64,000 bases of DNA, taken from Promethearchaeota archaeon. Its GTDB lineage: Archaea; Asgardarchaeota; Lokiarchaeia; Sigyniarchaeales; SOKP01. Within the stretch, counting starts at the first letter, position 1; the number at the start of each line of letters is the position of its first letter. Location of the stretch: NCBI GenBank assembly GCA_016839705.1, contig JAEOTR010000025.1, forward strand, positions 1 to 64,000. The letters run 5' to 3'. The notes beneath the pieces were generated by a model. That model was not told the DNA's origin. It did no database searches and saw nothing but the letters and a program-made list of their open reading frames with translations. Of this stretch, positions 28,363 through 47,746 are shown piece after piece. The position numbers and the translations under genes are program-made.

Positions 28363-29205
28363 TTATTTGGTTTTATATCTATAGAATCCTTTTCCAGATT
28401 TAACTCCCAATTCACCCCTATCAACCATTTCTTTAAGAGCATCTGGTGGTTTATCATCAGGGTAACCGCTATTTTTAAAGTATGACATTTCAATATCATA
28501 AACAACATCTAATCCAATTCGATCCATGAATTGAAAAGGTCCTAAATTGGTTTTGCTAAAAAATTGACAAAATAACCTCCATGCTTTATCAACAATTTCA
28601 ATATCGGCATGATCCCCCGCCCAAATCTTTAGACAATCCTTTTTAATCGCTCTCCATATCCGATTCATAACAAAACCGTAACATTCTTTCTTTACTTCAA
28701 GGGGTGTAATTTCAATACTCTCTAACCAAGCTCTACCTTTTTCGAATGTAGCTTCGCTTGTTTGAGTTCCGCGCATGATATCAGCTATAGGTAGCATAAA
28801 TAGATCATAGAAGTGAATATTCATTACCTTATCTTTTCTTTCCACAACATCTTCAATCTTTGAAATCGGTATTGAGGAACTATTTGTGGCTATAATTGTG
28901 TGGGGTGAAGCTGCTTTATCTATCTTGGGAAAAATCTCTCTCTTTAATTCAAGCTTTTCAGGTACAGCCTCAATAACAAGGTCTACACCTTTAACAGCTT
29001 CAGCAATGTTATTAAATTGAGTTATAGATGCACTTAGATTTTTGTCCTCTATTGTTTTTTTCATCCTTTTCGTAAAAGCATCTAAATCTTCCTTGTTAGT
29101 ATCAAAAGCTTTAATCTTGTAATTATAAAGAAGAGATTTCTCAATAATTTGTTTACCCAAATACCCTGCACCTACTACAGATATTTTTCTAATTTTACTA
29201 TTCAT
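28363..29205 (-). CDS. 3-hydroxyacyl-CoA dehydrogenase family
   Basis: VVGAGYLG, EAVPEKLELK, TNSSS, GPFQFMDRIGLD, GVKSGKGFY. Confidence 0.88.
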   Translation of the reverse strand: MNSKIRKISVVGAGYLGKQIIEKSLLYNYKIKAFDTNKEDLDAFTKRMKKTIEDKNLSASITQFNNIAEAVKGVDLVIEAVPEKLELKREIFPKIDKAASPHTIIATNSSSIPISKIEDVVERKDKVMNIHFYDLFMLPIADIMRGTQTSEATFEKGRAWLESIEITPLEVKKECYGFVMNRIWRAIKKDCLKIWAGDHADIEIVDKAWRLFCQFFSKTNLGPFQFMDRIGLDVVYDIEMSYFKNSGYPDDKPPDALKEMVDRGELGVKSGKGFYRYKTK

Positions 29206-29310: not shown

Positions 29311-30276
29311 ATGGAAGCTAAAGATATTAAAAAAATTGCTGTCGTTGGAGCAGGAGTCATCGGAAATAGCTGGACAGCAAATTTTATATGGAAAGGATAT
29401 CCTGTGAATCTTTGGCTGTATACCGCAGATGAAGAGGATATTGCTAAACAAGAAATTAATGAACATCTTGAAAGTTTAGCTATAAATGGAGTTTTTGGAA
29501 AAGAAGAAATTCCTGATATGATGAAATTAGTAAAATATACAACTTCCCTTGAAACTACAGTTAAGGATGTTCAATTTATTCAAGAGTCAATAATTGAAAA
29601 ATTAGAAATAAAACAGAAGTTTCTTGCTGATATAGATAAATTAGCATCCCCTGATGCAATTTTTGCAAGTAGTACATCCTATCTATTAATCAGTGACATT
29701 GCTAAATTTTCACAATACTCTCATAGATGTATTGGTGCTCACCCGTATAATCCGCCTCATCTTATTCCTCTAGTCGAAATAACAATTCCAGGAGGAGATA
29801 AAGGGTCGATCAAAACAGCAGAACTAGCAGCTAAATTTTATGAAAAAATTAATAAAGTCCCAGTTATATTGAAGAAGGATGTTCCAGGATTTATCGCAAA
29901 TCAAATACAAGGGGCAGTAGGTACAATATGTGGGGAATTACTTGTTAATGGTGTATGTACCGTTGAAGATATAGATAAAGCTATGTCTTTTGGTCCAGGA
30001 TTACGGTGGGCAACTATGGGTCCTTATTTAGTTTATCAGTTGGGGGGAGGTAAAGGAGGGATTAAGGGAATAACATTACATATACGAGGAGAATCAGGAG
30101 AACCAATGGATGAACAAGAGAGGAAACAACTTGAAATGTATGCAAATTTTATTCAAGGAGAAGTAGATAAAGAAATGGCAAAAAGACCTCCAGAATTTGG
30201 AAATGATAATGATTCTCTAAGAAAATTTCGAGATCGTCTCATTATTAAAATACTTCGAGAACATAAGAAAATTTAG
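29311..30276 (+). CDS. 3-hydroxyacyl-CoA dehydrogenase family (carnitine/gulonate dehydrogenase-like)
   Basis: VVGAGVIG, QESIIE, ASSTS, HPYNPPHLIPLVE, GPGLRWATMGP. Confidence 0.88.
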   Translation: MEAKDIKKIAVVGAGVIGNSWTANFIWKGYPVNLWLYTADEEDIAKQEINEHLESLAINGVFGKEEIPDMMKLVKYTTSLETTVKDVQFIQESIIEKLEIKQKFLADIDKLASPDAIFASSTSYLLISDIAKFSQYSHRCIGAHPYNPPHLIPLVEITIPGGDKGSIKTAELAAKFYEKINKVPVILKKDVPGFIANQIQGAVGTICGELLVNGVCTVEDIDKAMSFGPGLRWATMGPYLVYQLGGGKGGIKGITLHIRGESGEPMDEQERKQLEMYANFIQGEVDKEMAKRPPEFGNDNDSLRKFRDRLIIKILREHKKI

Positions 30277-35031: not shown

Positions 35032-36612
35032 ATGGTTGATAAAGTAGTACCTTTTTTAATTAATATGGGTGAAATTACTCCTGCACGAAGTCAAGCCTCT
35101 GTTTTGAATGAGTTAGCAATGGCACTTATTGAATGTATCGAAATTTATCGTAAGAATCTTAAAAAAATGGGCCGAATTGCAAAAATCTCAACAGCATTTT
35201 GGCCTGTTCGTTTAATTCCATTATCTGAAACTAGAGCATGTGTATGTAGTTATCTATATAATAAACAGGAGAAATTAAGTGTTGGTAAATTTGCTCAGAC
35301 GCCCCCTCGACCTGAAGCTGTTATAAAAGGAGCAGATCCGGTAAGTTTTCTAAATTCTTTACAACAATATAATAATAACTATTTGAGAAGAACAAAGAAT
35401 TTTAAAAGGGGTGTAGTAATTCAAGAAGCTTTGTTTAATACAAATGAAGTCGGCTATTTTCAGAATTTTTTCCTGAATCAGTACAATTTAAGCTCACATG
35501 CATCCCCCTATTTTTTACTTGAGGGAGGTTCAATATCAAAGAGTGTAAATCAAACGAGAATTGTTCCCGAAATTACGGAATATCTATCTCAAAAGGATGT
35601 TCATCTTCTTGATACTTATGGAGATGCAATTACGAAATTATGTGAAAGATGGATACAAAAAGGAGGAAAAGACGCGGACAAAATTAGAGACACAAAAGTA
35701 GATACTGGTGAGGAAGAAAAACAACTTGCTATTCTCAATAAAGAATTACAAGCAGAGAAAGAACGAACGTTCGAAAAGACTCCAGAAGAACTAGTTAAAA
35801 GTGGGAAATATAAAATTAATGATAAAACTGGAGAATTGAATAATAATCTTAATGCTATAAAAAATAGTGTTGATAGTATGAAAAATGCTATTAATCAGAG
35901 AGATCTTTTTCTTACCGAAGAGAGTTTGAAGGATGCTGATCTAAAATATAGAGATTTGGGAAATTCTTTAAATCGTTATAAAAGTGAAATAGATCAGTTA
36001 AGGAAAAACGTACAAAGAGAAGTCTCTGACCAAGAGAAAACACAACAACAGAAAATTAGAGAATTAGAAAGAAAAAAATCTGAAGTTGAAAAACAAATTG
36101 AAGCTAAGCATTCAGGTTTAAGTAAAGATTTAACGTCTGCTGAAGACGTAGTCGCGAAAATTAAAACTGAAAAGCAAACATGCTTGGATAATATTGAGAG
36201 TATAAAAGATAAAGAAATGACAGAGGTTCAAACCTTTTTCAATAATTATTCTCTTGAGGTAAAAACTCAAAATGTTGTTGTTGGGATTCCGATTTATATC
36301 TTTTATTTTGTCGATCCCAATACAAATAGCACCACTGAAAGAGCTCCCGTTCTCCCAATTTTAATTGATAAAGGAAAAGTAGTTAGTACTAAAGTCAAGA
36401 CAAGCTTTAGGCAAAAATTACGGGATCTAATGAATAAAGATAACGCAATGATTAGTTTGGTTGAAACCCAAGGAGATAATAATAATTTAATGGAAATTAA
36501 AAATTTAGATACTCGTTTAGAGGACGCGATAAACGATTTGAGAATCCGAAAAATTTTGAGCAAAAAGTTAGCAGAATCTGCGAAAAATGTAATTACCGAT
36601 TTATTATGGTAA
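35032..36612 (+). CDS. Hypothetical protein with long central coiled coil
   Basis: 526-aa ORF; E/K/Q/L heptad-rich region from about residue 225 to 400 flanked by globular segments. Confidence 0.75.
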   Translation: MVDKVVPFLINMGEITPARSQASVLNELAMALIECIEIYRKNLKKMGRIAKISTAFWPVRLIPLSETRACVCSYLYNKQEKLSVGKFAQTPPRPEAVIKGADPVSFLNSLQQYNNNYLRRTKNFKRGVVIQEALFNTNEVGYFQNFFLNQYNLSSHASPYFLLEGGSISKSVNQTRIVPEITEYLSQKDVHLLDTYGDAITKLCERWIQKGGKDADKIRDTKVDTGEEEKQLAILNKELQAEKERTFEKTPEELVKSGKYKINDKTGELNNNLNAIKNSVDSMKNAINQRDLFLTEESLKDADLKYRDLGNSLNRYKSEIDQLRKNVQREVSDQEKTQQQKIRELERKKSEVEKQIEAKHSGLSKDLTSAEDVVAKIKTEKQTCLDNIESIKDKEMTEVQTFFNNYSLEVKTQNVVVGIPIYIFYFVDPNTNSTTERAPVLPILIDKGKVVSTKVKTSFRQKLRDLMNKDNAMISLVETQGDNNNLMEIKNLDTRLEDAINDLRIRKILSKKLAESAKNVITDLLW

Positions 36613-37055: not shown

Positions 37056-38309
37056 TTGGAAATGTCCAAAAAATTAATCCTTAATAAAACTTTCAAATTA
37101 TACGAAGAAGCACTTGGATTAATTCCCGGAGCAATACTTGGAATTAGAAGACCATATAACTTCGTTGAAGGTGAATATCCAATATTCTTTGAGACCGCCA
37201 AAGGGGGAAAGGTGATTGATGTTGATGGAAACGAATATATTGACATGCTGTGCGCCTATGGTCCCATAATAATTGGTCATAGAGAAGAAGAAATTGATAA
37301 CGCGGTCATTACACAAATAAGAGAAAAAGGATTTTGTATGTCCTTAACTCAACCAACGCAAAATCAATTAGCTAAAAAATTAAAACAACTAATACCATGT
37401 GCTGAGAAGATGGTATTTGTTAAGATGGGATCTGATGCTACTACCTCTGCGGTTCGCGTTGCTCGAAGTTATACAAATAGAGTCAAGATTTTACGCTGTG
37501 GTTATCACGGATGGCATGATTGGTGTGTTGAACAGAAAGGTGGGATACCTGAAAAATTATATGAAGATGTCATCGAATTTGAGTACAATAATTTAGAGCA
37601 AGTTAGGCATCTGATGAATGAACATGGTAAAGACGTGGCCGCGATTATTCTTACTCCGATTAACCACCCAGGAGGACACGAAGTAGAAATGCCTAAAAAT
37701 GGATTCTTAGAAGGTATTCGTGAAATTACGGATAATTACGGTTCTCTTCTTATATATGATGAGATCCGTACTGGATTTCGTGTTGATATGGGGGGTTTTC
37801 AGAAAAAATCAGGAGTTATCCCTGATTTGGGAGCTTTTGGTAAAGCAATGGCGAATGGATATCCTATTGGGGTGCTTACTGGGAAGAAGGAATTTATGGA
37901 TGAGTTAGTTGAGAATGTATTTCTCAGTTCTACTTTTTTCCCTAATAGTCTAGCACAAGTTGCAGCTCTTAAAACAATAGAAATAATGGAGCGTGAAAAT
38001 GTATTAGACAATATAAGCGAGAAAGGAAATAAATTTGCTAATACAGTTAAAAATATGATAGAGGATAGCGGTGTCCCCTGTACCTTCTCTGGAGAACCTT
38101 GGATGCCTTATATTACGTTTGACCGCGATCCTGATAATCTTTATAAAAAATTACGAGAAGAATTTTACAGGCAATTAATCCGTCGAAATGTTTTTCTTCA
38201 ACCATTCCATCATGGTTATATTTGTTTCCGACATACTGATGAAGATTTAGAACATGCCGCAGAAATGATTAATGAATCCCTGAACGAATGCAAGAAATTG
38301 ATGAAGTGA
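37056..38309 (+). CDS. kat: Class III PLP aminotransferase (HemL-like), probable 3-aminobutyryl-CoA aminotransferase Kat
   Basis: DVDGNEYID, GYHGWHDW, DEIRTGFR, FGKAMANGYP; first gene of a lysine fermentation cluster lacking kal. Confidence 0.75.
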   Translation: MEMSKKLILNKTFKLYEEALGLIPGAILGIRRPYNFVEGEYPIFFETAKGGKVIDVDGNEYIDMLCAYGPIIIGHREEEIDNAVITQIREKGFCMSLTQPTQNQLAKKLKQLIPCAEKMVFVKMGSDATTSAVRVARSYTNRVKILRCGYHGWHDWCVEQKGGIPEKLYEDVIEFEYNNLEQVRHLMNEHGKDVAAIILTPINHPGGHEVEMPKNGFLEGIREITDNYGSLLIYDEIRTGFRVDMGGFQKKSGVIPDLGAFGKAMANGYPIGVLTGKKEFMDELVENVFLSSTFFPNSLAQVAALKTIEIMERENVLDNISEKGNKFANTVKNMIEDSGVPCTFSGEPWMPYITFDRDPDNLYKKLREEFYRQLIRRNVFLQPFHHGYICFRHTDEDLEHAAEMINESLNECKKLMK

Positions 38310-38317
38310 AAAAGACC

Positions 38318-39505
38318 ATGGTTAGACCACTAGAAGGAATTAAAGTTTTAGATTTGTCAAGAGCACTAGCTGGACCTTACTGTACCATGATGTTAGCAGA
38401 TATGGGCGCGGATGTAATAAAGTTAGAAATGCCTGGGAGAGGAGATGACTCTAGAGCTTGGGGACCACCTTTTGTTGATGGTGAAAGTGCTTATTTTATG
38501 AGTGTTAACCGTAATAAGAAATCTATGACCTTGAACTTGAAAAAAGAGAAAGCTATGGAGATAATTCATAAATTAATTAAACAATCTGATGTTTTACTAG
38601 AAAATTTTCGTCCAGGCACAATGGAAAAGTTGAAGTTAAGCTATGAGGAAGTCAAGAAAATAAACCCAAATATTATATTTTGTAGCATTTCTGGCTTTGG
38701 ACAGGATGGTCCCTATCGATTATTACCCGGTATGGATCAAGTATTACAAGGCATGGGAGGATTGATGAGTATCACAGGGGAACCTAATGGGCCCCCCATG
38801 AAGGTTGGAGTAGCTGTTGCTGATATTGCTGGTGGAATGTTCGCTGCATATGGTATTCTAGTGGCTCTATTTAATAGGGAAAAAAAAGATGAAGGACAAT
38901 CAATAGATCTAAGTTTATTAGATTGTCAAATTGCTTGGTTAACTTATCGAGCGGGCTCATATTTTGCTTCCGGAGAGATTCCTAAACCGTTAGGCTCCGG
39001 TCATCCTGTGATTGTACCTTATCAAGCATTTAAAGCGAAAGATGGTTATGTTAATATTGCAGCTGGTAATGACCAGTTATGGCAAAAATTTTGTAAAGCA
39101 GCTGGATTGGAAAATATAATGAATAAAAAAAGCTTTGCTACTAATGAAGTACGGGTTGAAAATAGAGAAGAATTAATAGAAATTATAGGAAAAGTGATAA
39201 GTACCAAGGATTCTGAAGAATGGCTCAAAATTTTAACTGATGCGGGTGTTCCTTGTGGACCAATCTTTAATATGGAAAAGATTTTTAGTGATCCTCAAGT
39301 ACTACATAGGGAAATGGTAAAAGAACTTGATCATAAAACAGCAGGAAAGGTAAAGGTAACTGGTATACCAATCAAATTATCGAAAACCCCTGGTGAATTA
39401 TTAACAGCACCTCCCGTTTTAGGACAGCATACAATTGAAATCCTCTCGGACTTAGGATATAATGAAGATGCAATTAAGGAATATTATCAAGATAACGTTA
39501 TTTAA
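38318..39505 (+). CDS. Family III (CaiB/BaiF) CoA-transferase
   Basis: PLEGIKVLDLSRALAGP, NRNKKS, ENFRPG, SISGFGQDGP, D..GG; ATG 38318 preferred to 38288. Confidence 0.92.
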   Translation: MVRPLEGIKVLDLSRALAGPYCTMMLADMGADVIKLEMPGRGDDSRAWGPPFVDGESAYFMSVNRNKKSMTLNLKKEKAMEIIHKLIKQSDVLLENFRPGTMEKLKLSYEEVKKINPNIIFCSISGFGQDGPYRLLPGMDQVLQGMGGLMSITGEPNGPPMKVGVAVADIAGGMFAAYGILVALFNREKKDEGQSIDLSLLDCQIAWLTYRAGSYFASGEIPKPLGSGHPVIVPYQAFKAKDGYVNIAAGNDQLWQKFCKAAGLENIMNKKSFATNEVRVENREELIEIIGKVISTKDSEEWLKILTDAGVPCGPIFNMEKIFSDPQVLHREMVKELDHKTAGKVKVTGIPIKLSKTPGELLTAPPVLGQHTIEILSDLGYNEDAIKEYYQDNVI

Positions 39506-39543
39506 TTTATTCGAGTTTTAAAAAACCACAAGGATGAAATATT

Positions 39544-40368
39544 ATGGAAAAACTTATTATTACAGCTGCTATTTGCGGAGCAGAAGTTACTAAAGAACAT
39601 AATAATAATGTACCTTATACTGTAGATGAAATCGGACGAGAGGCAGAAGCTGCATATAATGCAGGTGCGAGTATAATCCATCTACATGTGAGAGAAGATG
39701 ATGGAACACCAACTCAAAATAAGGAGAGATTTAGAAAGTGTATTGAAGAAGTGAAAAAAAGGTGCCCAGATGTTATTATTCAACCCTCTACAGGGGGAGC
39801 AATTGGTATGACAAATGAGGATAGATTGCAGCCTATTTACTTAGAACCTCCTCCTGAAATGGCAACCTTAGATTGTGGAACCATGAATTTCGGAGGAGAT
39901 GAAATCTTCGTAAACACTGAAAATACAATTATTTTTTTCGCAGAAGAAATGAACAAGAGAAATATTAAATATGAGCTAGAATGTTTTGATAAGGGAATGA
40001 TTGATATGGTCTTACGATTAAACAAAAAAGGACATATTAAAGAGCCAATGCATTTCAATTTTGTACTTGGGGTGATTGGAGGAATAAGTGCTTCACCCCG
40101 AGATTTAAATTTTCTTATAGGAAGTATACCAGAAGGTTCTACCTATACAGTGTGCGCAGTTGGGAGACATGAATTTCCGATGGTATCATTATCTATTGAA
40201 AAAGGAGGTCACGCTAGAGTAGGCTTTGAAGATAACATATATCTCGCTAAAGAGGTATTAGCAAAATCAAATGGAGAATTAGTAGAAAAAGTTGTGAGGA
40301 TTGCAAACAAATTCGGAAGAGTTATTGCTTCTCCAAATGAAGCACGTAAGATCCTAAGTATATTATAA
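39544..40368 (+). CDS. kce: 3-keto-5-aminohexanoate cleavage enzyme
   Basis: MEKLIITAAICGAE, IHLHVR, QPSTGGA, PEMATLDCGT, RVGFEDN. Confidence 0.93.
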   Translation: MEKLIITAAICGAEVTKEHNNNVPYTVDEIGREAEAAYNAGASIIHLHVREDDGTPTQNKERFRKCIEEVKKRCPDVIIQPSTGGAIGMTNEDRLQPIYLEPPPEMATLDCGTMNFGGDEIFVNTENTIIFFAEEMNKRNIKYELECFDKGMIDMVLRLNKKGHIKEPMHFNFVLGVIGGISASPRDLNFLIGSIPEGSTYTVCAVGRHEFPMVSLSIEKGGHARVGFEDNIYLAKEVLAKSNGELVEKVVRIANKFGRVIASPNEARKILSIL

Positions 40369-40398
40369 TTAAACTAACCATAAAAATAAAGGGTAGGT

Positions 40399-41106
40399 AT
40401 GTATAAAGAATTAGCTAAATATTATGATTTGATTTATTCTTGGAAGGATTATAAAAAGGAAACTGTTAAGATTAATAAATTAATTAAAAAATATAAGAAT
40501 TCGGATGGAAATAAACTTCTAGATGTAGCATGTGGAACAGGAAAACACCTAAAATATTTTAAAAAAAACTTCTCATGTTCAGGTATTGATTTAAATGAAG
40601 AAGTGATAGATATTGCTAAGACTAATGTAAGGGATGTGTCATTTAACCAGGCAGATATGATAAATTTCAATTTGAATGATACTGTTGATATAATAATCTG
40701 TCTATTTAGCTCAATCGGATATGTTAAAACCTATGATAACTTAGAAAAAACGATTAGGAACTTCGCAGATCATTTAAAAACTGGTGGAATAGCAATTATA
40801 GAACCTTGGTTTACTAAATCTACATATACGGTAGGCTATCCCGGGATGACAACTTATAATGGAGAAGATATTAAAATTGCGAGATTAAACACAACAAAAT
40901 TAGAAAATAATCTTTCAGTTATGGAGATGCATTATTTAATCGTCGAAAGAGATAAAGATGTTAAATATTTTGTTGATAGGCATGAAGTAGGACTTTTTGA
41001 AATCGATAAATTTTTAGAAATCATGAACAATTCTGGATTTAAAGCAGAATTTTTAAAAGATGGATTAATGAAAGATAGAGGTTTGTACATCGGTATAAAA
41101 TCTTAA
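40399..41106 (+). CDS. Class I SAM-dependent methyltransferase (resembles amino-sugar N-methyltransferases)
   Basis: LLDVACGTGKH, CLFSSIGY, IIEPWF. Confidence 0.85.
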   Translation: MYKELAKYYDLIYSWKDYKKETVKINKLIKKYKNSDGNKLLDVACGTGKHLKYFKKNFSCSGIDLNEEVIDIAKTNVRDVSFNQADMINFNLNDTVDIIICLFSSIGYVKTYDNLEKTIRNFADHLKTGGIAIIEPWFTKSTYTVGYPGMTTYNGEDIKIARLNTTKLENNLSVMEMHYLIVERDKDVKYFVDRHEVGLFEIDKFLEIMNNSGFKAEFLKDGLMKDRGLYIGIKS

Positions 41107-41118
41107 AAATTATTAAAA

Positions 41119-42174
41119 GTGGAGATTATAATGAAAAAAGGAAATAGATATGGTACACATAGAGTTATTGAGCCTGTAGGAACACTTCCACAACCTGCCA
41201 TAAAAATATCAAATGACATGGAAATATTCGATAATGAAATTTTAATAGATGTGGATTATTTGAATATTGATTCAGCGAGTTTCATGCAGCTCAAAGAAGA
41301 GGCGAAAGGAGATATCGAAAAGGTAAAAGCAAAAATAATAGAAATTGTAAATAATAGAGGTAAAATGCAAAATCCTGTTACTGGCTCTGGTGGAATGCTT
41401 ATAGGAAATGTAGAGAAAGTAGGTGATTCAATAAAAGGAAAGGTCAAGATAAAGGAAGGAGACAAGATTGCTACATTAGTTTCATTATCACTCACACCCC
41501 TTCGAATTGATAAAATTATTGACATAAAACCTGACATCGATAGGGTCGAAATTGAAGGGAAGGCAATTCTTTTTGAAAGTGGAATATATACTAAACTTCC
41601 AGATGATATGGATTCTACTTTGGCATTAGCTGCGTTAGATGTAGCAGGCGCCCCAGCTCAGGTTAAACATTTAGTGAAAACTGGTGATACTGTGTTGATT
41701 TTAGGTGCAACAGGTAAATCTGGATTAATGTGTTCCTATATTGCTAAAAAACTTGCTGGTGATAAAGGAAAAGTTATTGGTCAAGCAAGGAATGAAACTC
41801 GAGCAGAATTTCTTAGAAACACAGACTTTTGTGACGAAATTATTATTGCTGATGTATTAAAACCTACAGACGTGTTAGAAAAAACACTAGAAAGTAATAA
41901 CGGAAAAGAAGTAGATCTTACCATCAATTGTTTAAGCATACCAAATACAGAGATGTCGAGTATTCTTCCAGTTCGAGATGGGGGAATAGTATATTTTTTC
42001 TCGATGGCGACTAGCTTTACTAAAGCCGCTTTAGGAGCTGAGGGTGTAGGAAAAGACGTAACAATGATTATCGGTAATGGTTATACAAAAAATCACGATC
42101 AAATAGCGTTAAATGTCCTAAGGGAATCTAAGGTTTTAAGAAAAATATTCGAAGAAAAATATACAAAGAAATAA
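41119..42174 (+). CDS. kdd: L-erythro-3,5-diaminohexanoate dehydrogenase
   Basis: YGTHRVIEP.G.LPQPA, NPVTGSGGML, LDVAGAPAQ, FSMATSF; ATG at 41131 is an alternative start. Confidence 0.93.
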   Translation: MEIIMKKGNRYGTHRVIEPVGTLPQPAIKISNDMEIFDNEILIDVDYLNIDSASFMQLKEEAKGDIEKVKAKIIEIVNNRGKMQNPVTGSGGMLIGNVEKVGDSIKGKVKIKEGDKIATLVSLSLTPLRIDKIIDIKPDIDRVEIEGKAILFESGIYTKLPDDMDSTLALAALDVAGAPAQVKHLVKTGDTVLILGATGKSGLMCSYIAKKLAGDKGKVIGQARNETRAEFLRNTDFCDEIIIADVLKPTDVLEKTLESNNGKEVDLTINCLSIPNTEMSSILPVRDGGIVYFFSMATSFTKAALGAEGVGKDVTMIIGNGYTKNHDQIALNVLRESKVLRKIFEEKYTKK

Positions 42175-42266
42175 TGAACTAATTTAATTCTTCTAATTAA
42201 ACAATATTTTTAGCTTTTGAAACATTACTAATTATTAGATTAAAATACACTTGTAGGTTTGTTGTT

Positions 42267-43505
42267 ATGAAAGTTAATAGACGTAAAGATTTATTTTCTC
42301 ATATAAGCGATGAGGAATGGAATGATTGGCGTTGGCAAGTTAAAAATAGAATAACCACGTTTGAAGAGTTAAGAAAATATCTTAAATTAACTGAGGAAGA
42401 AGATGATCCTCGTTTATTGAAAGAATACCGCATGGCAATTACACCCTATTATTTAACTTTAATTGACCCAGATGATCCTTATGATCCTGTCAGAAAACAA
42501 GCAATTCCAACCGTTCATGAATTAGAAAGATACACTGGGGACCTTGAAGATCCTTTAAGCGAGGATGTTGATTCCCCTGTTGAGGGATTAACCCATCGTT
42601 ATCCAGATAGAGTATTGTTTTTAGTTACTGAAGTTTGTTCAATGTATTGTCGACACTGTACTAGAAGAAGATTCGCAGGTCATCATGATATGGCACCACC
42701 TCAACCACAAATTGATGCTTGCATTGAGTATATCAGAAATACTCCTTCTATCAGAGATGTGCTCTTATCTGGTGGAGATGCATTATTAATCTCTGATAAG
42801 AACCTCGAAGATATTTTACAAAAATTAAAAGAAATACCGCATGTAGAAATAATCCGGATAGGTTCAAGAGCCCCTGTTACAAATCCATTCCGAATAACGC
42901 CAGAATTATGTAAAATACTTAAAAATTATCAACCTATTTGGTTTAACACACATTTTAATCATGCGAATGAAATTACAGACGATTCAACAAAAGCATGTGA
43001 AATGCTAGCTGATGCGGGGATTCCGATGGGAAATCAATCTGTTCTTTTAAGAGGTGTCAATGATTGTATTCATGTAATGAAAAATTTAGTACAGGGATTA
43101 GTAAAAATTCGAGTTAGACCTTATTATCTTTATCAATGTGATCTTTCTATAGGACTAGGACATTTTAGAACCAGCGTTGCTCAAGGTATTGAAATTATTG
43201 AAGGGTTAAGAGGACATACGTCTGGGTTATGTGTACCGACATTTGTAGTTGATGCTCCTGGAGGTGGTGGTAAAATCCCCGTCATGCCAGATTATACAAT
43301 TTCTCAAGGAAACACTCGAGTTGTTTTGCGAAATTTTGAGGGAGTTATAACAACTTATGAGGAACCAAACGATTATATTCCAATTTGCCATTGCGAAGAC
43401 TGTGAAAAACAAATTGGGGTTAGTGCTTTATTAAGTGGGCAAAAAATGACAATTGAACCTGAAGATATGGTCAGAAAATTAAGAAGGAAGAAACTGAGTA
43501 AATAA
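42267..43505 (+). CDS. kamA: Lysine 2,3-aminomutase (radical SAM, PLP)
   Basis: [42 protein letters not shown]. Confidence 0.96.
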
Positions 43506-43551
43506 TTTTTTGATATCCCGAATTAAATGATTAAGCAAAAATCAAAAGATT

Positions 43552-44172
43552 TTATAGATCAATGACTATGAAGTCATTATCTCCAAGTAATTTTACTTCA
43601 TTCCTGGTATTTTTAATATATTTTTCAAGAAATTTCATGTGAGAGGATTCAGAGTAGTGAGCACAAATTTCGAAATTTACAATGCCTAATCCTGTAAAAT
43701 CTCTCATTTCATCTTGAGTCATATATTTTTTACCACCAGGATAATTATCATTAAATAATTTAGCAATTTCTAATGTTGGTGTGAGTACATAAGCACCTGC
43801 GCTATAACCTGCCAAAATGAATCCCTCCTTTTTTGTAAACTCTGTAATAGAAGCATCTAATCTTGATTTGCGCAAGTTAATTAACAATTGAAATGGATCC
43901 CCCCCAGATATTATTAAAATATTAGAATTTTTGAGCTTTTCCTCTTCATTAGGTATATCTATAGCAGAATTATCAACATAATCAAGATTCACATTGAATT
44001 CATTTGCAAAACAATCCCAATCATCAAAAAACTGTTGTGGAGTATTTGCTATCCCTTGTGAGGGCATAAAAAGTGGGTGTTTATTTTTCATAGATGTTGG
44101 GAATATTAAACTCAAAATTTCCTGAAAGTTTTCATTGTTATAAGGCGTCGAAAATAAAACAATTCTCTTCAT
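43552..44172 (-). CDS. Peptidase E (S51) / type 1 glutamine amidotransferase-like protein
   Basis: SGGDPFQL, GYSAGA, GLGIVNF...AHY. Confidence 0.78.
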   Translation of the reverse strand: MKRIVLFSTPYNNENFQEILSLIFPTSMKNKHPLFMPSQGIANTPQQFFDDWDCFANEFNVNLDYVDNSAIDIPNEEEKLKNSNILIISGGDPFQLLINLRKSRLDASITEFTKKEGFILAGYSAGAYVLTPTLEIAKLFNDNYPGGKKYMTQDEMRDFTGLGIVNFEICAHYSESSHMKFLEKYIKNTRNEVKLLGDNDFIVIDL

Positions 44173-44254
44173 TTTCTTGATAATCTCCTTAGTAAATTGC
44201 TAAGAAGAATAGTTTCCTTAAAAGCCTTTGGTAGCTGAATGTATCAAATAATTT

Positions 44255-45355
44255 ATGATTAAGTTAAAATTTAAGGAAATAAGAATTATCATTATTAATT
44301 CAATTATTTCTTGCATGAAAATGGACTTATTTATAGACTATTTCACTAAAATTGAGACACCAAAAGTAATCTCAATAATAGGTCTTGCAAAAAATGTTTC
44401 TAAAACAACGACTCTGAATTATATTATAAGAAATATCAATGAAAGTTATGTTCTAGGTCTCACTTCAATTGGGAGAGATGGTGAAAAGTATGATGTCATC
44501 ACGGATTTACCAAAACCCCAAATTTACATAAAGTATGGAACTTATGTAGTCACTGCTAGGCAGTGTTTTGAGGAGAGTAAAATAAAGTTCGAAGTTATTA
44601 AATCTACTGGGTTTAATACACCCCTAGGAGAGATTCTGATCTTAAAGGCACAAGCAAATGGATATATTGAATTAGCAGGGCCTTCCATAAATAACCAATT
44701 AAAAAAAATCTGTACAGATCTAAAAAACTTAGGTTGCGATCTTATACTATTGGATGGAGCATTTGATAGAAGATCCTATTCAACGCCTTTAATCTCAGAT
44801 GCTACAATTATCTCGACAGGAGCCTCTGTATCAAGAAATATGAAAGAAGTAATAGATTTAACGGTTCATACCATTAAATTACTAAATTTAGAGCAAGAAT
44901 TGGATAAAAAAATTTTAAAATCCTCTGAAAAAATAATAGGAAAATTTAAAATAGGTACTATAAGTAAAACTAATTCAATTGAGATTTTAAAGGTCGCAAC
45001 AGCGTTAGATTCAGCTCAATATATAATTGATAGTATAGATGAAGATTCAAATTACATTGTAATAAGTGGTGCTATTACAGATAAATTTTTGGAAGACTTA
45101 ATGAGATCTACTCAAAAGTATAAGGGTCTCACCTTTTTAGTTAGTGATTCGACAAAATTGTTTTTAAGCGAGAAGATTTTGGAGAAATTCCAAAAGAAGG
45201 GAGGAATCATAAAAGTTTTAAATCCTATAAAAATTATCGCAGTGACAATAAATCCGACATCCCCAAATGGATATGAATTTGATAAAGATGTATTTTTAAA
45301 ATCATTAGCTGAAGAACTTAAGATCCCTGTCTATAACCTTGGAGTTAATGATTAA
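44255..45355 (+). CDS. kamB: KamB-like lysine 5,6-aminomutase accessory protein
   Basis: SIIGLAKNVSKTTTLN, LTSIGRDGE, DGAFDR, TINPTSP; directly upstream of kamD; start may be ATG 44315. Confidence 0.7.
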   Translation: MIKLKFKEIRIIIINSIISCMKMDLFIDYFTKIETPKVISIIGLAKNVSKTTTLNYIIRNINESYVLGLTSIGRDGEKYDVITDLPKPQIYIKYGTYVVTARQCFEESKIKFEVIKSTGFNTPLGEILILKAQANGYIELAGPSINNQLKKICTDLKNLGCDLILLDGAFDRRSYSTPLISDATIISTGASVSRNMKEVIDLTVHTIKLLNLEQELDKKILKSSEKIIGKFKIGTISKTNSIEILKVATALDSAQYIIDSIDEDSNYIVISGAITDKFLEDLMRSTQKYKGLTFLVSDSTKLFLSEKILEKFQKKGGIIKVLNPIKIIAVTINPTSPNGYEFDKDVFLKSLAEELKIPVYNLGVND

Positions 45356-45369
45356 ATAAATAAGATTAT

Positions 45370-46950
45370 GTGAAAATCATGATGGAAAAAGAAAGTAAGT
45401 TAAATTTAGATTTTTCAATTGTAATTAAAGCAAGAGAATCAGCAAAAAATATTGCATTAGATACTCAAAAATTCATAGATCAATACACCACTATTACAGT
45501 TGAAAGGACTGTATGTAGATTATTTGGTATTGACGGTGTAGATGAATTTGACGTTCCCTTGCCAAATGTTGTGGTTGATAGTATAAAAAACGACATAGCA
45601 ATTGGCGCAGCAATCCATATTGGAAACGCTATATTGCATATCAACCTTACACCTCAAGAAATTGCTGAAAAAGTTAGTAGGAGCGAATTAGATTTACTTA
45701 GTTTACCATTAAAAGACATTTCTGAGATTAAAACTAAAATTAATTCCATTGTTCAGGAAAAATTACGTCAAATTTCTCAAAATAAAAGCAAAAGAAATGA
45801 ATTAATTAATAAGTATGGAGAAAAGGATGGTCCCCTTATTTATGTTATTGTCGCAACAGGTAATATTTATGAAGACATTATCCAAGCTCAAGCAGCAGCG
45901 CGTCAAGGTGCAGATGTAATCGCAGTAATTAGATCTACAGTACAAAGCTTACTTGATTATGTTCCTTATGGTGCTACAACTGAAGGTTTTGGAGGGACTT
46001 ATGCGACTCAAGAGAACTTTCGACTAATGAGAAAAGCATTGGATGAGGTTAGTGAAGAATTAGGACGATATATTAGACTGACCAATTACTGCTCTGGCTT
46101 ATGTATGCCAGAAATTGCTGTAATGGGTGCTTTTGAAAGACTAGATATGATGCTAAATGATGCTTTATACGGAATTTTATTCCGTGACATCAATATGAAG
46201 AGAACGATTGTTGATCAATATTTTTCGAGAATGATAAATGCTTATGCAGGAATTATCATTAATACCGGTGAGGATAATTATTTAACCACGGCTGATGCAT
46301 ATGAATCGGCGCACACTGTTATTGCTTCTGAATTTATTAATGAACAATTTGCCTTACTTGCAGGATTAAGAGAAGAACTTATGGGTCTAGGACACGCCTT
46401 TGAAATGAATCCCGATTTGGAAAATGGCTTTTTATATGAACTTGCACAAGCTCAAATGGTAAGAGAAATTTTTCCGAACGCACCTCTTAAATACATGCCT
46501 CCGACGAAATATATGACTGGAAATATCTTTAAGGGGCATATTCAAGACGCTTTATTTAATATAATTACAATCATGACTAACCAACGAATCCATCTCTTGG
46601 GCATGTTGACAGAGGCTATACACACTCCCTTTATAGCTGATAGAGCATTATCAATAGAAAATGCGAAATATATTTTTAATAACCTGAAATCCCTGAGTGA
46701 AGAAATTACGTTTAAGAAAGGCGGTTTAATAGAAAAACGAGCTAACGAAGTTCTTAATAGTGCTTATAATTTGCTAAAGCAAATTGAAAAACAGGGACTA
46801 TTTACAACTATTGAAAAAGGCATTTTTGCGAATATTAAGAGATCCCCAGATGGTGGAAAAGGAGTGGAAGGAGTGATTCGAAAAAATAAGGACTATTATA
46901 ATCCATTTATGGATATTATGATTAATGAATTAAGAAAAGGAGGGAGTTAA
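45370..46950 (+). CDS. kamD: D-lysine/beta-lysine 5,6-aminomutase alpha subunit
   Basis: TVERTVCRLFGIDG, YVIVATGNIYED, NYCSGLCMPEIA, PLKYMPPTK. Confidence 0.95.
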   Translation: MKIMMEKESKLNLDFSIVIKARESAKNIALDTQKFIDQYTTITVERTVCRLFGIDGVDEFDVPLPNVVVDSIKNDIAIGAAIHIGNAILHINLTPQEIAEKVSRSELDLLSLPLKDISEIKTKINSIVQEKLRQISQNKSKRNELINKYGEKDGPLIYVIVATGNIYEDIIQAQAAARQGADVIAVIRSTVQSLLDYVPYGATTEGFGGTYATQENFRLMRKALDEVSEELGRYIRLTNYCSGLCMPEIAVMGAFERLDMMLNDALYGILFRDINMKRTIVDQYFSRMINAYAGIIINTGEDNYLTTADAYESAHTVIASEFINEQFALLAGLREELMGLGHAFEMNPDLENGFLYELAQAQMVREIFPNAPLKYMPPTKYMTGNIFKGHIQDALFNIITIMTNQRIHLLGMLTEAIHTPFIADRALSIENAKYIFNNLKSLSEEITFKKGGLIEKRANEVLNSAYNLLKQIEKQGLFTTIEKGIFANIKRSPDGGKGVEGVIRKNKDYYNPFMDIMINELRKGGS

Positions 46951-46951
46951 A

Positions 46952-47746
46952 ATGGGTGGCGGATTATATTCGACTGAAAAGAAGGATTTTGACGAAAAAT
47001 TAGATTTGACAAGAATTAAACCTTATGGGGATACTATGAATGATGGGAAAGTGCAAATAAGCTTCACACTACCTATTGAAGATAACGAAAAAGCAGTAGT
47101 AGCAGCTAAAGAGTTGGCAAATAAGATGGGATTAAAAGATCCCGAAGTAGCTTATCATACAGCTTTAGATAAGGGATTCACCTTCTTTGTAGTTTATGGA
47201 AAATCACTCCATTCAATTGATTACACTAAAATTCAAATAGATGCAGTAGAAGTAGATGTCATGTCGAAAGAAGAGATAAATCATTATATTCAGGATAAAA
47301 TTGGACGAAAATTAGTGATTCTTGGAGCTTCTACAGGCACAGATGCTCATACTGTAGGAATTGATGCAATTATGAATATGAAGGGTTTTGCAGGTCATTA
47401 TGGTCTTGAACATTATGAAATGATCGAAGCTATTAACCTTGGTAGTCAAGTAACGAATGAAGAATTTGTTAAAAAAGCTATAGAACTTAAAGCAGATGTT
47501 TTGCTTGTTTCACAAACGGTTACCCAGAAAAATATACATTTAACTAACTTAACTCAATTAGTTGACCTTTTAGAAGCTGAAGGAATAAGAGAGCATATTA
47601 TTTTAATTTGTGGTGGAGCTAGGATAGATAATGAATTAGCAAAAGAATTAGGATATGATGCTGGGTTTGGACCGGGTAGTTATGCTGAAATTGTCGCATC
47701 TTTTTTTATTAGAGAGTATGTAAGCAGAATGGAATTAAGCAAATAA
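46952..47746 (+). CDS. kamE: Lysine 5,6-aminomutase beta subunit (B12-binding)
   Basis: KPYGDTMNDGKVQ, DAHTVGIDAIMNMKG cobalamin/PLP motif, GYDAGFG. Confidence 0.95.
   Translation: MGGGLYSTEKKDFDEKLDLTRIKPYGDTMNDGKVQISFTLPIEDNEKAVVAAKELANKMGLKDPEVAYHTALDKGFTFFVVYGKSLHSIDYTKIQIDAVEVDVMSKEEINHYIQDKIGRKLVILGASTGTDAHTVGIDAIMNMKGFAGHYGLEHYEMIEAINLGSQVTNEEFVKKAIELKADVLLVSQTVTQKNIHLTNLTQLVDLLEAEGIREHIILICGGARIDNELAKELGYDAGFGPGSYAEIVASFFIREYVSRMELSK

Follow-up and report, generated by a model that had tools for sequence, protein, structure and literature searches.

Gene organization of the lysine cluster

The window analysed here, a 64,000-nucleotide stretch of contig JAEOTR010000025.1 (assembly GCA_016839705.1), belongs to a metagenome-assembled genome (MAG) of 3.36 Mb with a completeness of 93%, and carries at positions 37056-47746 a cluster of genes for anaerobic lysine breakdown headed by an aminotransferase gene. 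The closest homologues carry the names Promethearchaeota or Lokiarchaeota, identifying the source as an Asgard archaeon, in agreement with an earlier note on this DNA. Genes were assigned from a listing of open reading frames and by profile searches against Pfam and NCBIfam, the latter with its curated equivalog cut-offs. The cluster is read here, with a probability of roughly 80%, as two functional operons with which a Loki-type Asgard archaeon would break down lysine anaerobically, in the variant in which a 3-aminobutyryl-coenzyme A (CoA) aminotransferase, Kat, takes the place of Kal, the ammonia lyase that acts on 3-aminobutyryl-CoA.

Six core genes are clustered on the plus strand, and all of them exceed the curated NCBIfam cut-offs. 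The kce gene (39544-40368 (+); NF052387, 434 bits, cut-off 382; PF05853) is followed by kdd, encoding L-erythro-3,5-diaminohexanoate dehydrogenase (41119-42174 (+); NF052381, 271 bits, cut-off 200), and by kamA, encoding lysine 2,3-aminomutase, a radical S-adenosylmethionine (SAM)/pyridoxal phosphate (PLP) enzyme (42267-43505 (+); TIGR03820, 597 bits, cut-off 525) with the cluster motif CSMYCRHC and the PLP-lysine motif PGGGGK. Further downstream lie kamB, for the reactivase subunit of lysine 5,6-aminomutase (44255-45355 (+); NF052386, 402 bits, cut-off 210), kamD (45370-46950 (+); NF052384, 916 bits, cut-off 600; PF09043) and kamE (46952-47746 (+); NF052385, 396 bits, cut-off 280; PF02310). 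For KamA, the top-scoring model (TIGR03820) is the AblA equivalog, which could point to the synthesis of β-lysine or N-ε-acetyl-β-lysine as osmolytes rather than to catabolism; such a role is most improbable, as no ablB-like acetyltransferase lies in the cluster and kamA has as its neighbours the genes for KamDE, Kdd and Kce, whose presence makes sense in catabolism only.

The cluster is led by kat, a gene for a class-III PLP aminotransferase (37062-38309 (+), or from a TTG at 37056; PF00202, 181 bits) predicted to act as 3-aminobutyryl-CoA:2-oxoglutarate aminotransferase. The ATG at 37062 is the more likely start, since it is preceded by GGAG and gives a protein of 415 aa, the same length as the homologues. 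The 3' end of kat is overlapped by 22 bases by the reading frame of a family III (CaiB/BaiF) CoA-transferase (38288-39505 (+); PF02515, 471 bits), and a SAM-dependent methyltransferase gene (40399-41106 (+); Methyltransf_25/11/23) is located between kce and kdd. The intergenic gaps in the cluster amount to 1-92 bases. Between kamA and kamB, a reverse-strand gene for an S51 peptidase of the PepE/cyanophycinase-like kind (43552-44172 (-); PF03575, 76 bits) splits the cluster, so that its layout is one of two transcription units. The peptidase is absent from between kamA and kamB in the clusters of L005, G182 and G191, and is probably not a pathway enzyme. The earlier note had described the clustering of kamA, kamDE, kdd and kce behind a HemL-like aminotransferase correctly; the CoA-transferase, the methyltransferase, the peptidase and KamB are additions to it.

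The aminotransferase belongs to the Kat family

NCBIfam holds no Kat model, and the top NCBIfam matches of the aminotransferase are HemL-type models, all of them below their cut-offs. The score on TIGR00713 is 282 bits against a cut-off of 527.3, whereas a true HemL from Methanosarcinaceae (L103), taken as a control, reaches 579 bits. The two enzymes share the same fold and overall length; moreover, the PDB has no entry for a characterised Kat, and the closest solved structures are those of HemL (230 bits). In addition, the Asgard homologues are labelled in IMG as glutamate-1-semialdehyde (GSA) aminotransferase. These likenesses would suit a genuine HemL that makes 5-aminolevulinate for corrinoid synthesis and is placed beside the B12-dependent KamDE for that reason. 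Such an assignment has very little probability, since the HemL scores lie far below the curated cut-offs that the control passes, kal and this gene replace each other at one slot (see below), and the partners of the C5 tetrapyrrole pathway are missing: in the 93% complete genome, the best match to the HemA model TIGR01035 is 20 bits (cut-off 210), and HemB (PF00490) has no match. The absence of HemA and HemB was also used by Perret et al. as an argument against HemL in Cloacimonas (PMC3149608).

The sequence retains the features expected of the class-III fold, including the Schiff-base lysine, with the segment FGKAMANGYP aligning with that of the Cloacimonadota orthologue. Bacterial relatives came from scanning GTDB species genomes and then running tblastn with the proteins of the window as queries. 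The aminotransferase is 63% identical, at full length and without gaps, to that of a Cloacimonadota MAG (L046), and 65% identical at full length to that of an anaerobic-digester Bacteroidetes MAG (L045); L045 and L046 are themselves 65% identical, and the two Kat subgroups previously described likewise share 65% identity (PMC3149608). In L045, the gene order is AtoD-AT-Kce-Kdd-KamA-KamB-KamC-KamD-KamE, where AT is the aminotransferase, and in L046 an acetyl-CoA acetyltransferase (thiolase) gene lies directly upstream. These contexts agree with those of the two assayed Kat enzymes, of which CLOAM0809 stands beside the thiolase CLOAM0810 and the Bacteroidetes protein DIG1_60031 is encoded at the kal locus (PMC3149608). 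Further bacterial relatives amid lysine genes, which together range from 50 to 65% identity to the window protein, occur in L052 (kdd...kamDE-AT-kce), in the Elusimicrobia L054 and L056 (kamDE-AT), and in L048 and L057 (AT-kce).

In a careful maximum likelihood tree of 59 aminotransferases, the Kat family receives a support of 100/99, and the Asgard proteins form a clade with L045, L046, L052, L054 and L056 (100/98), within which the Asgard clade is itself supported at 100/100. The true HemL and the other HemL-like clades fall outside the Kat family. Thus the protein groups with the Cloacimonadota (WWE1) and Bacteroidetes subgroups, as represented by proxies, and not with GSA aminomutases. Together, the scores, the tree and the identities support a Kat-family enzyme rather than a GSA aminomutase, as the earlier note had suggested, with a predicted activity on 3-aminobutyryl-CoA. 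An enzyme of this kind is expected to transaminate this thioester with 2-oxoglutarate and to be inactive on free β-amino acids, and can be assayed at 310 nm or by LC/MS (PMC3149608). The Kat of Cloacimonas has a kcat near 2 per second and a low micromolar Km.

kal and kat alternate at one slot upstream of kce

The absence of kal from the cluster is certain, since the slot that holds the gene in relatives is spanned by the contig without a break. The search of the whole genome agrees, with a best match to NF052388 of 23.6 bits (cut-off 160), and the N-terminal Kal part of the bifunctional model NF052389 likewise has no match; the lyase of the classical variant is thus not found in the 93% complete genome. 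The combination that the earlier note had named as refuting its reading, a grouping with GSA aminomutases and a kal elsewhere, was therefore not observed. Two genomes of the same genus, G182 and G191, carry the arrangement U526-Kal-Kce-(methyltransferase)-Kdd-KamA-KamB-KamD-KamE-OAT, with proteins 66-90% identical to those of the window, and their kal occupies the exact position of kat and the CoA-transferase gene in the window. Of these two, U526 is seen only in G182, because the contig of G191 ends about 0.9 kb past kal.

U526 is a conserved 526-aa coiled-coil protein (35032-36612 (+) in the window) with no Pfam or NCBIfam match; its coiled coil is long and central, and its AlphaFold model is poor (pLDDT 55). 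In family f1, its gene forms the left (upstream) boundary of the kal/kat slot, and kce forms the other. Whether the cluster is of the Kal or the Kat type, U526 is encoded immediately upstream of it in this family, where it is conserved at 59-88% identity.

In a sample of 400 genomes of the Asgard phylum, with a threshold of E <= 1e-120 for Kat-like proteins, KamD occurs in 83 genomes, a Kat-like protein in 61 and Kal in 28. Among the 83 KamD-positive genomes, 54 have Kat only, 22 have Kal only, a single genome (G138) has both, and six have neither, most of the six being incomplete. In the genome of the window, kat is likewise associated with kce, kdd and kamADE and occurs in the absence of kal. 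G138, a 6-Mb single-contig genome, shows that the two genes are able to coexist: its locus (G138:C1:3074976-3081800, L112) contains kal, a reverse-strand gene of 1106 aa, and then kat-kce, an arrangement that may be an intermediate or ancestral state.

The replacement is precise at the nucleotide level. In near-sister pairs, homology of 84-89% runs through the U526 gene, ends shortly after it, and resumes exactly at the start codon of kce. The slot measures 612 bp with kal in G246 and 2223 bp with kat in G241, and 580 bp with kal in G247 and 1411 bp with kat in G249; in both pairs, the intervening segments are unrelated. Binning errors are ruled out, since each gene shares one contig with its flanks. 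Hence, a single slot immediately upstream of kce holds either kat or kal as interchangeable cassettes, which have been exchanged repeatedly in this order. That the two genes alternate almost exclusively is, among the comparative evidence, the strongest sign that both products would handle the same intermediate.

Repeated exchange and conflict between trees

A careful KamD tree was built from all full-length Kal-type genomes and a subset of the Kat-type genomes, and comprises 18 Kal, 22 Kat and four bacterial sequences, together with the one genome that has both. On this tree, the kal/kat state needs 11 changes, of which at least 10 are forced by well-supported branches, compared with a mean of 13.3 for shuffled labels; the count is a lower bound for the sampled taxa and not a rate, because the Kat-type genomes were subsampled. 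The trees of Kat and KamD are in conflict. Genus g1, which is recovered at 99/96 with KamD, is split into three groups on the Kat tree, and the Kats of genus g15, which belongs to the other family, nest within a group of family f1 (100/99). A constraint holding the g1 Kats together is rejected by the approximately unbiased (AU) test (p = 0.0002); the test was chosen after the tree had been seen, although the constrained group is a taxonomic one. This conflict implies that kat has moved among lineages independently of kamD, which lies 8 kb away, and such movement favours cassette exchange by recombination, as judged from the trees, over simple differential loss from an ancestor with both genes.

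Comparison with known lysine pathways

The Asgard isolate MK-D1 has a published "Lysine degradation" pathway consisting of kamA, kamD, kamE, kdd, kce and kal (Imachi et al. 2020, PMC7015854, Suppl. Table 4), in which kal (DSAG12_00569) adjoins kce. Asgard lysine fermentation is therefore not new in itself, its published form being the Kal form. The statement in the earlier note that the route is characterised in anaerobic bacteria overlooks the Kal-type pathway of MK-D1. Among the papers covered, a literature search on lysine fermentation, Kat or aminomutases in Asgard or Loki-type archaea found nothing beyond this supplementary table; a study of Thaumarchaeota mentions Kat and Kal as putative enzymes, in the absence of the core pathway. 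MK-D1 shares with the window the core of kamA, kamD, kamE, kdd and kce and the archaeal order; however, MK-D1, like G182 and G191, carries kal beside kce, where the window has kat and no kal. Furthermore, a MutS2-like gene that may encode KamC is listed for MK-D1, between its kamD and the gene presumed to be kamB, whereas the window has no KamC. What is new here is the replacement of kal by kat at one slot within a genus and the repeated exact exchange of the two; none of the papers covered by the search reports the Kat form in Asgard archaea.

The first four steps and their enzymes are common to the window and to the classical route of Fusobacterium nucleatum and Clostridium sticklandii (PMC3149608, Fig. 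1). [quoted passage not shown] The Kat variant of Cloacimonas and digester Bacteroidetes (Perret et al. 2011, PMC3149608) is closer to the window, as both have a HemL-like class-III aminotransferase in place of Kal. In the case of the Bacteroidetes-type cluster L045, the order kat-kce-kdd-kamA-kamB-...-kamD-kamE is shared with the window, and the identities reach 62-67% for Kat, Kce, Kdd, KamA, KamD and KamE, with only 28% for KamB. Compared with the bacterial Kat variant of PMC3149608, the window has an archaeal host, no kamC and a methyltransferase gene between kce and kdd. Its sub-lineage also has a family III CoA-transferase gene after kat and no adjacent AtoAD or thiolase. The methyltransferase gene between kce and kdd recurs in G191, G246, G241, G247, G249 and G151, and no gene lies between kce and kdd in L045.

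Distribution and origin

KamD, Kat and Kal are confined, within the 400-genome sample, to families f1 and f3 of one Asgard order. A wider spread, which the NCBI labels "Thorarchaeota" and "Hodarchaeota" on several entries would suggest (L006/L007, P0023, P0060, P0100, P0109 and P0114), was rejected, as the genes of the sample occur only in these two families; the phylum labels of the submitters overstate the spread of the cluster. Within the Kat family, the Asgard clade is surrounded by proteins of bacteria belonging to at least five phyla. This nesting, the order and identity shared with L045, and the restriction to one order are consistent with a transfer from bacteria to Asgard archaea, and it is plausible, from the trees, that the pathway entered an ancestor of this order in that way. 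The G+C content is uniform across the region, which argues against a recent transfer. The acquisition from bacteria proposed previously thus agrees with the trees and the restricted distribution, and its direction is an inference.

Cofactor supply, reactivation and accessory genes

KamE carries the motif DAHTVG (DxHxxG), which fits the B12 dependence that had been proposed for the cluster. Because the genome lacks the C5 tetrapyrrole route, the adenosylcobalamin for KamDE would have to be imported or salvaged. The reactivase is represented by KamB only. KamC, the ATPase partner of KamB, was found neither in the cluster nor in the genome (best match 211 bits, cut-off 300), and its gene is located between kamB and kamD in L045. 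Two substitutes were considered for it. A MutS-like gene (G000:C32:53993-56878), the sole one of its kind in the genome and the one that holds the best KamC match, was rejected, being a true MutS (935 bits). U526 was rejected as well, since no Walker A motif is visible by eye, no Pfam or NCBIfam model matches, and its structural model is unusable outside the coiled coil. In G138, a gap of 1.5 kb lies at the KamC position and may hold a KamC.

The family III CoA-transferase is an accessory addition of a sub-lineage. Its best NCBIfam match is a succinate--glutarate CoA-transferase (400 bits, under the cut-off of 750), and its closest solved structure is the human succinate-hydroxymethylglutarate CoA-transferase, SUGCT (387 bits). 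Orthologues with at least 75% identity occur in 9 of 135 genomes of the family, and they adjoin kat in seven. An obligatory partnership with Kat, as a non-orthologous replacement of AtoAD, was rejected as a general rule on account of these counts; it is countered further by the three family I CoA-transferase pairs of the genome, and by the fact that the nearest characterised relatives are dicarboxylate transferases, SUGCT among them.

Several points weigh against the reading of the cluster as a working Kat-type lysine pathway. The estimated contamination of the MAG is 6.8%. The pathway, as judged from the gene content, depends on imported cobalamin, and with KamC missing, KamDE may be reactivated in another way or less effectively. 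L045 and L046 are proxies chosen by phylum and gene context, and are not the assayed proteins CLOAM0809 and DIG1_60031. Finally, a sister clade from Desulfobacterota, 55-60% identical, is found without lysine genes, and the NaphS2 homologue of PMC3149608 is probably another case of this kind; the substrate therefore does not follow from membership of the wider Kat family.

This last point bears on a different function, in which the aminotransferase would act on another β-aminoacyl-CoA or β-amino acid independently of the product of Kce, with the CoA-transferase first activating free 3-aminobutyrate or β-alanine. The characterised Kat takes other β-aminoacyl thioesters, kat overlaps the CoA-transferase gene in the window, and some of the Desulfobacterota Kat-like genes (L035 and L044) are followed by a distant family III CoA-transferase with 31-32% identity. 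This function is unlikely, however, since, of about 60 Asgard genomes with kat, only 7 have the CoA-transferase beside it, and elsewhere kat lies directly upstream of kce. Moreover, kat and kal are almost mutually exclusive at the same slot, and the Asgard proteins join the bacterial Kats with lysine context and not the Desulfobacterota clade. The reading as a lysine pathway with Kat acting on the product of Kce is thus preferred.

Proposed pathway and end products

In the proposed pathway, KamA would convert L-lysine to β-lysine, and KamDE, dependent on adenosylcobalamin and PLP and serviced by KamB, would give 3,5-diaminohexanoate. [quoted passage not shown] Instead of the deamination by Kal to crotonyl-CoA, Kat would catalyse a transamination in which 3-aminobutyryl-CoA hands its β-amino group to 2-oxoglutarate, with acetoacetyl-CoA and glutamate as products, and glutamate dehydrogenase would regenerate 2-oxoglutarate. 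Thiolase and an ADP-forming acetyl-CoA synthetase, both encoded elsewhere in the genome, would lead on to acetyl-CoA, acetate and ATP. The genome contains several thiolases, three family I CoA-transferase pairs, two glutamate dehydrogenases and a protein of the ADP-forming (ACD-type) acetyl-CoA synthetase type, so that the route to acetyl-CoA, acetate and ATP is complete on paper.

In the Kal route, the NADH derived from Kdd would be used in the reduction of crotonyl-CoA, and butyrate and acetate would be formed. The Kat route, combined with glutamate dehydrogenase, is inferred to release a second electron pair, to yield up to three acetate and more substrate-level ATP, and to need an electron sink. 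The second pair of reducing equivalents would have to be passed to a syntrophic partner in the form of H2 or formate, or be consumed in the reduction of acetoacetyl-CoA to butyrate.

Acetate in place of butyrate, as expected earlier, is not a secure conclusion. The genome is rich in genes for the reductive direction, with 14 acyl-CoA dehydrogenase, 20 crotonase-family and at least five 3-hydroxyacyl-CoA dehydrogenase genes, so butyrate could still be formed from acetoacetyl-CoA. A Kat-type pathway might accordingly make largely butyrate, by way of 3-hydroxybutyryl-CoA, crotonyl-CoA and butyryl-CoA with re-oxidation of NAD(P)H, in which case the switch between kal and kat would alter the route and not the products. 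This outcome, which Perret et al. proposed for Cloacimonas (PMC3149608), is a serious possibility, though not the favoured one. The genes that would serve it include an hbd-crt pair on C22 and two genes in the window, but none of them is linked to the cluster. Moreover, MK-D1, a relative in culture, depends obligately on syntrophy and releases H2 or formate, which would allow the fully oxidative route.

The two genes in the window are divergent 3-hydroxyacyl-CoA dehydrogenase genes (28363-29205 (-) and 29311-30276 (+)), about 8 kb upstream of the cluster, and are candidates for acetoacetyl-CoA reduction. A second BKACE-family paralogue is located on contig C88 (G000:C88:114421-118981; L002, L014), with 178 bits to the Kce part of NF052389. 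It adjoins a thiolase-like gene and an acyl-CoA dehydrogenase gene, and the locus may belong to a different β-keto acid cleavage pathway.

Implications for Asgard metabolism

Among the sampled Asgard species genomes, the Kat form outnumbers the published Kal form by a factor of about 2.5. It would route the amino group to glutamate and leave an extra electron pair to dispose of. Metabolic reconstructions that seek only kal, or that trust the "HemL" label, would misread the step, the redox balance and the H2 output. The repeated, precise exchange of two unrelated enzymes is a clean natural case of non-orthologous replacement, and it provides strong comparative evidence on the function of an enzyme family that has been assayed only in two bacterial proteins.

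The exchange of kal and kat is likely to have a redox meaning for syntrophic Asgard archaea. As a speculation that is rather unlikely on present evidence, the two genes might form a recombining two-allele cassette in Loki-type populations, exchanged through the homologous flanks provided by the U526 gene and kce, and toggling the fermentation between a redox-balanced, butyrate-producing Kal mode and an electron-exporting Kat mode with a higher ATP yield. If so, the state of the cassette would report, and perhaps tune, the dependence of a lineage on syntrophy.

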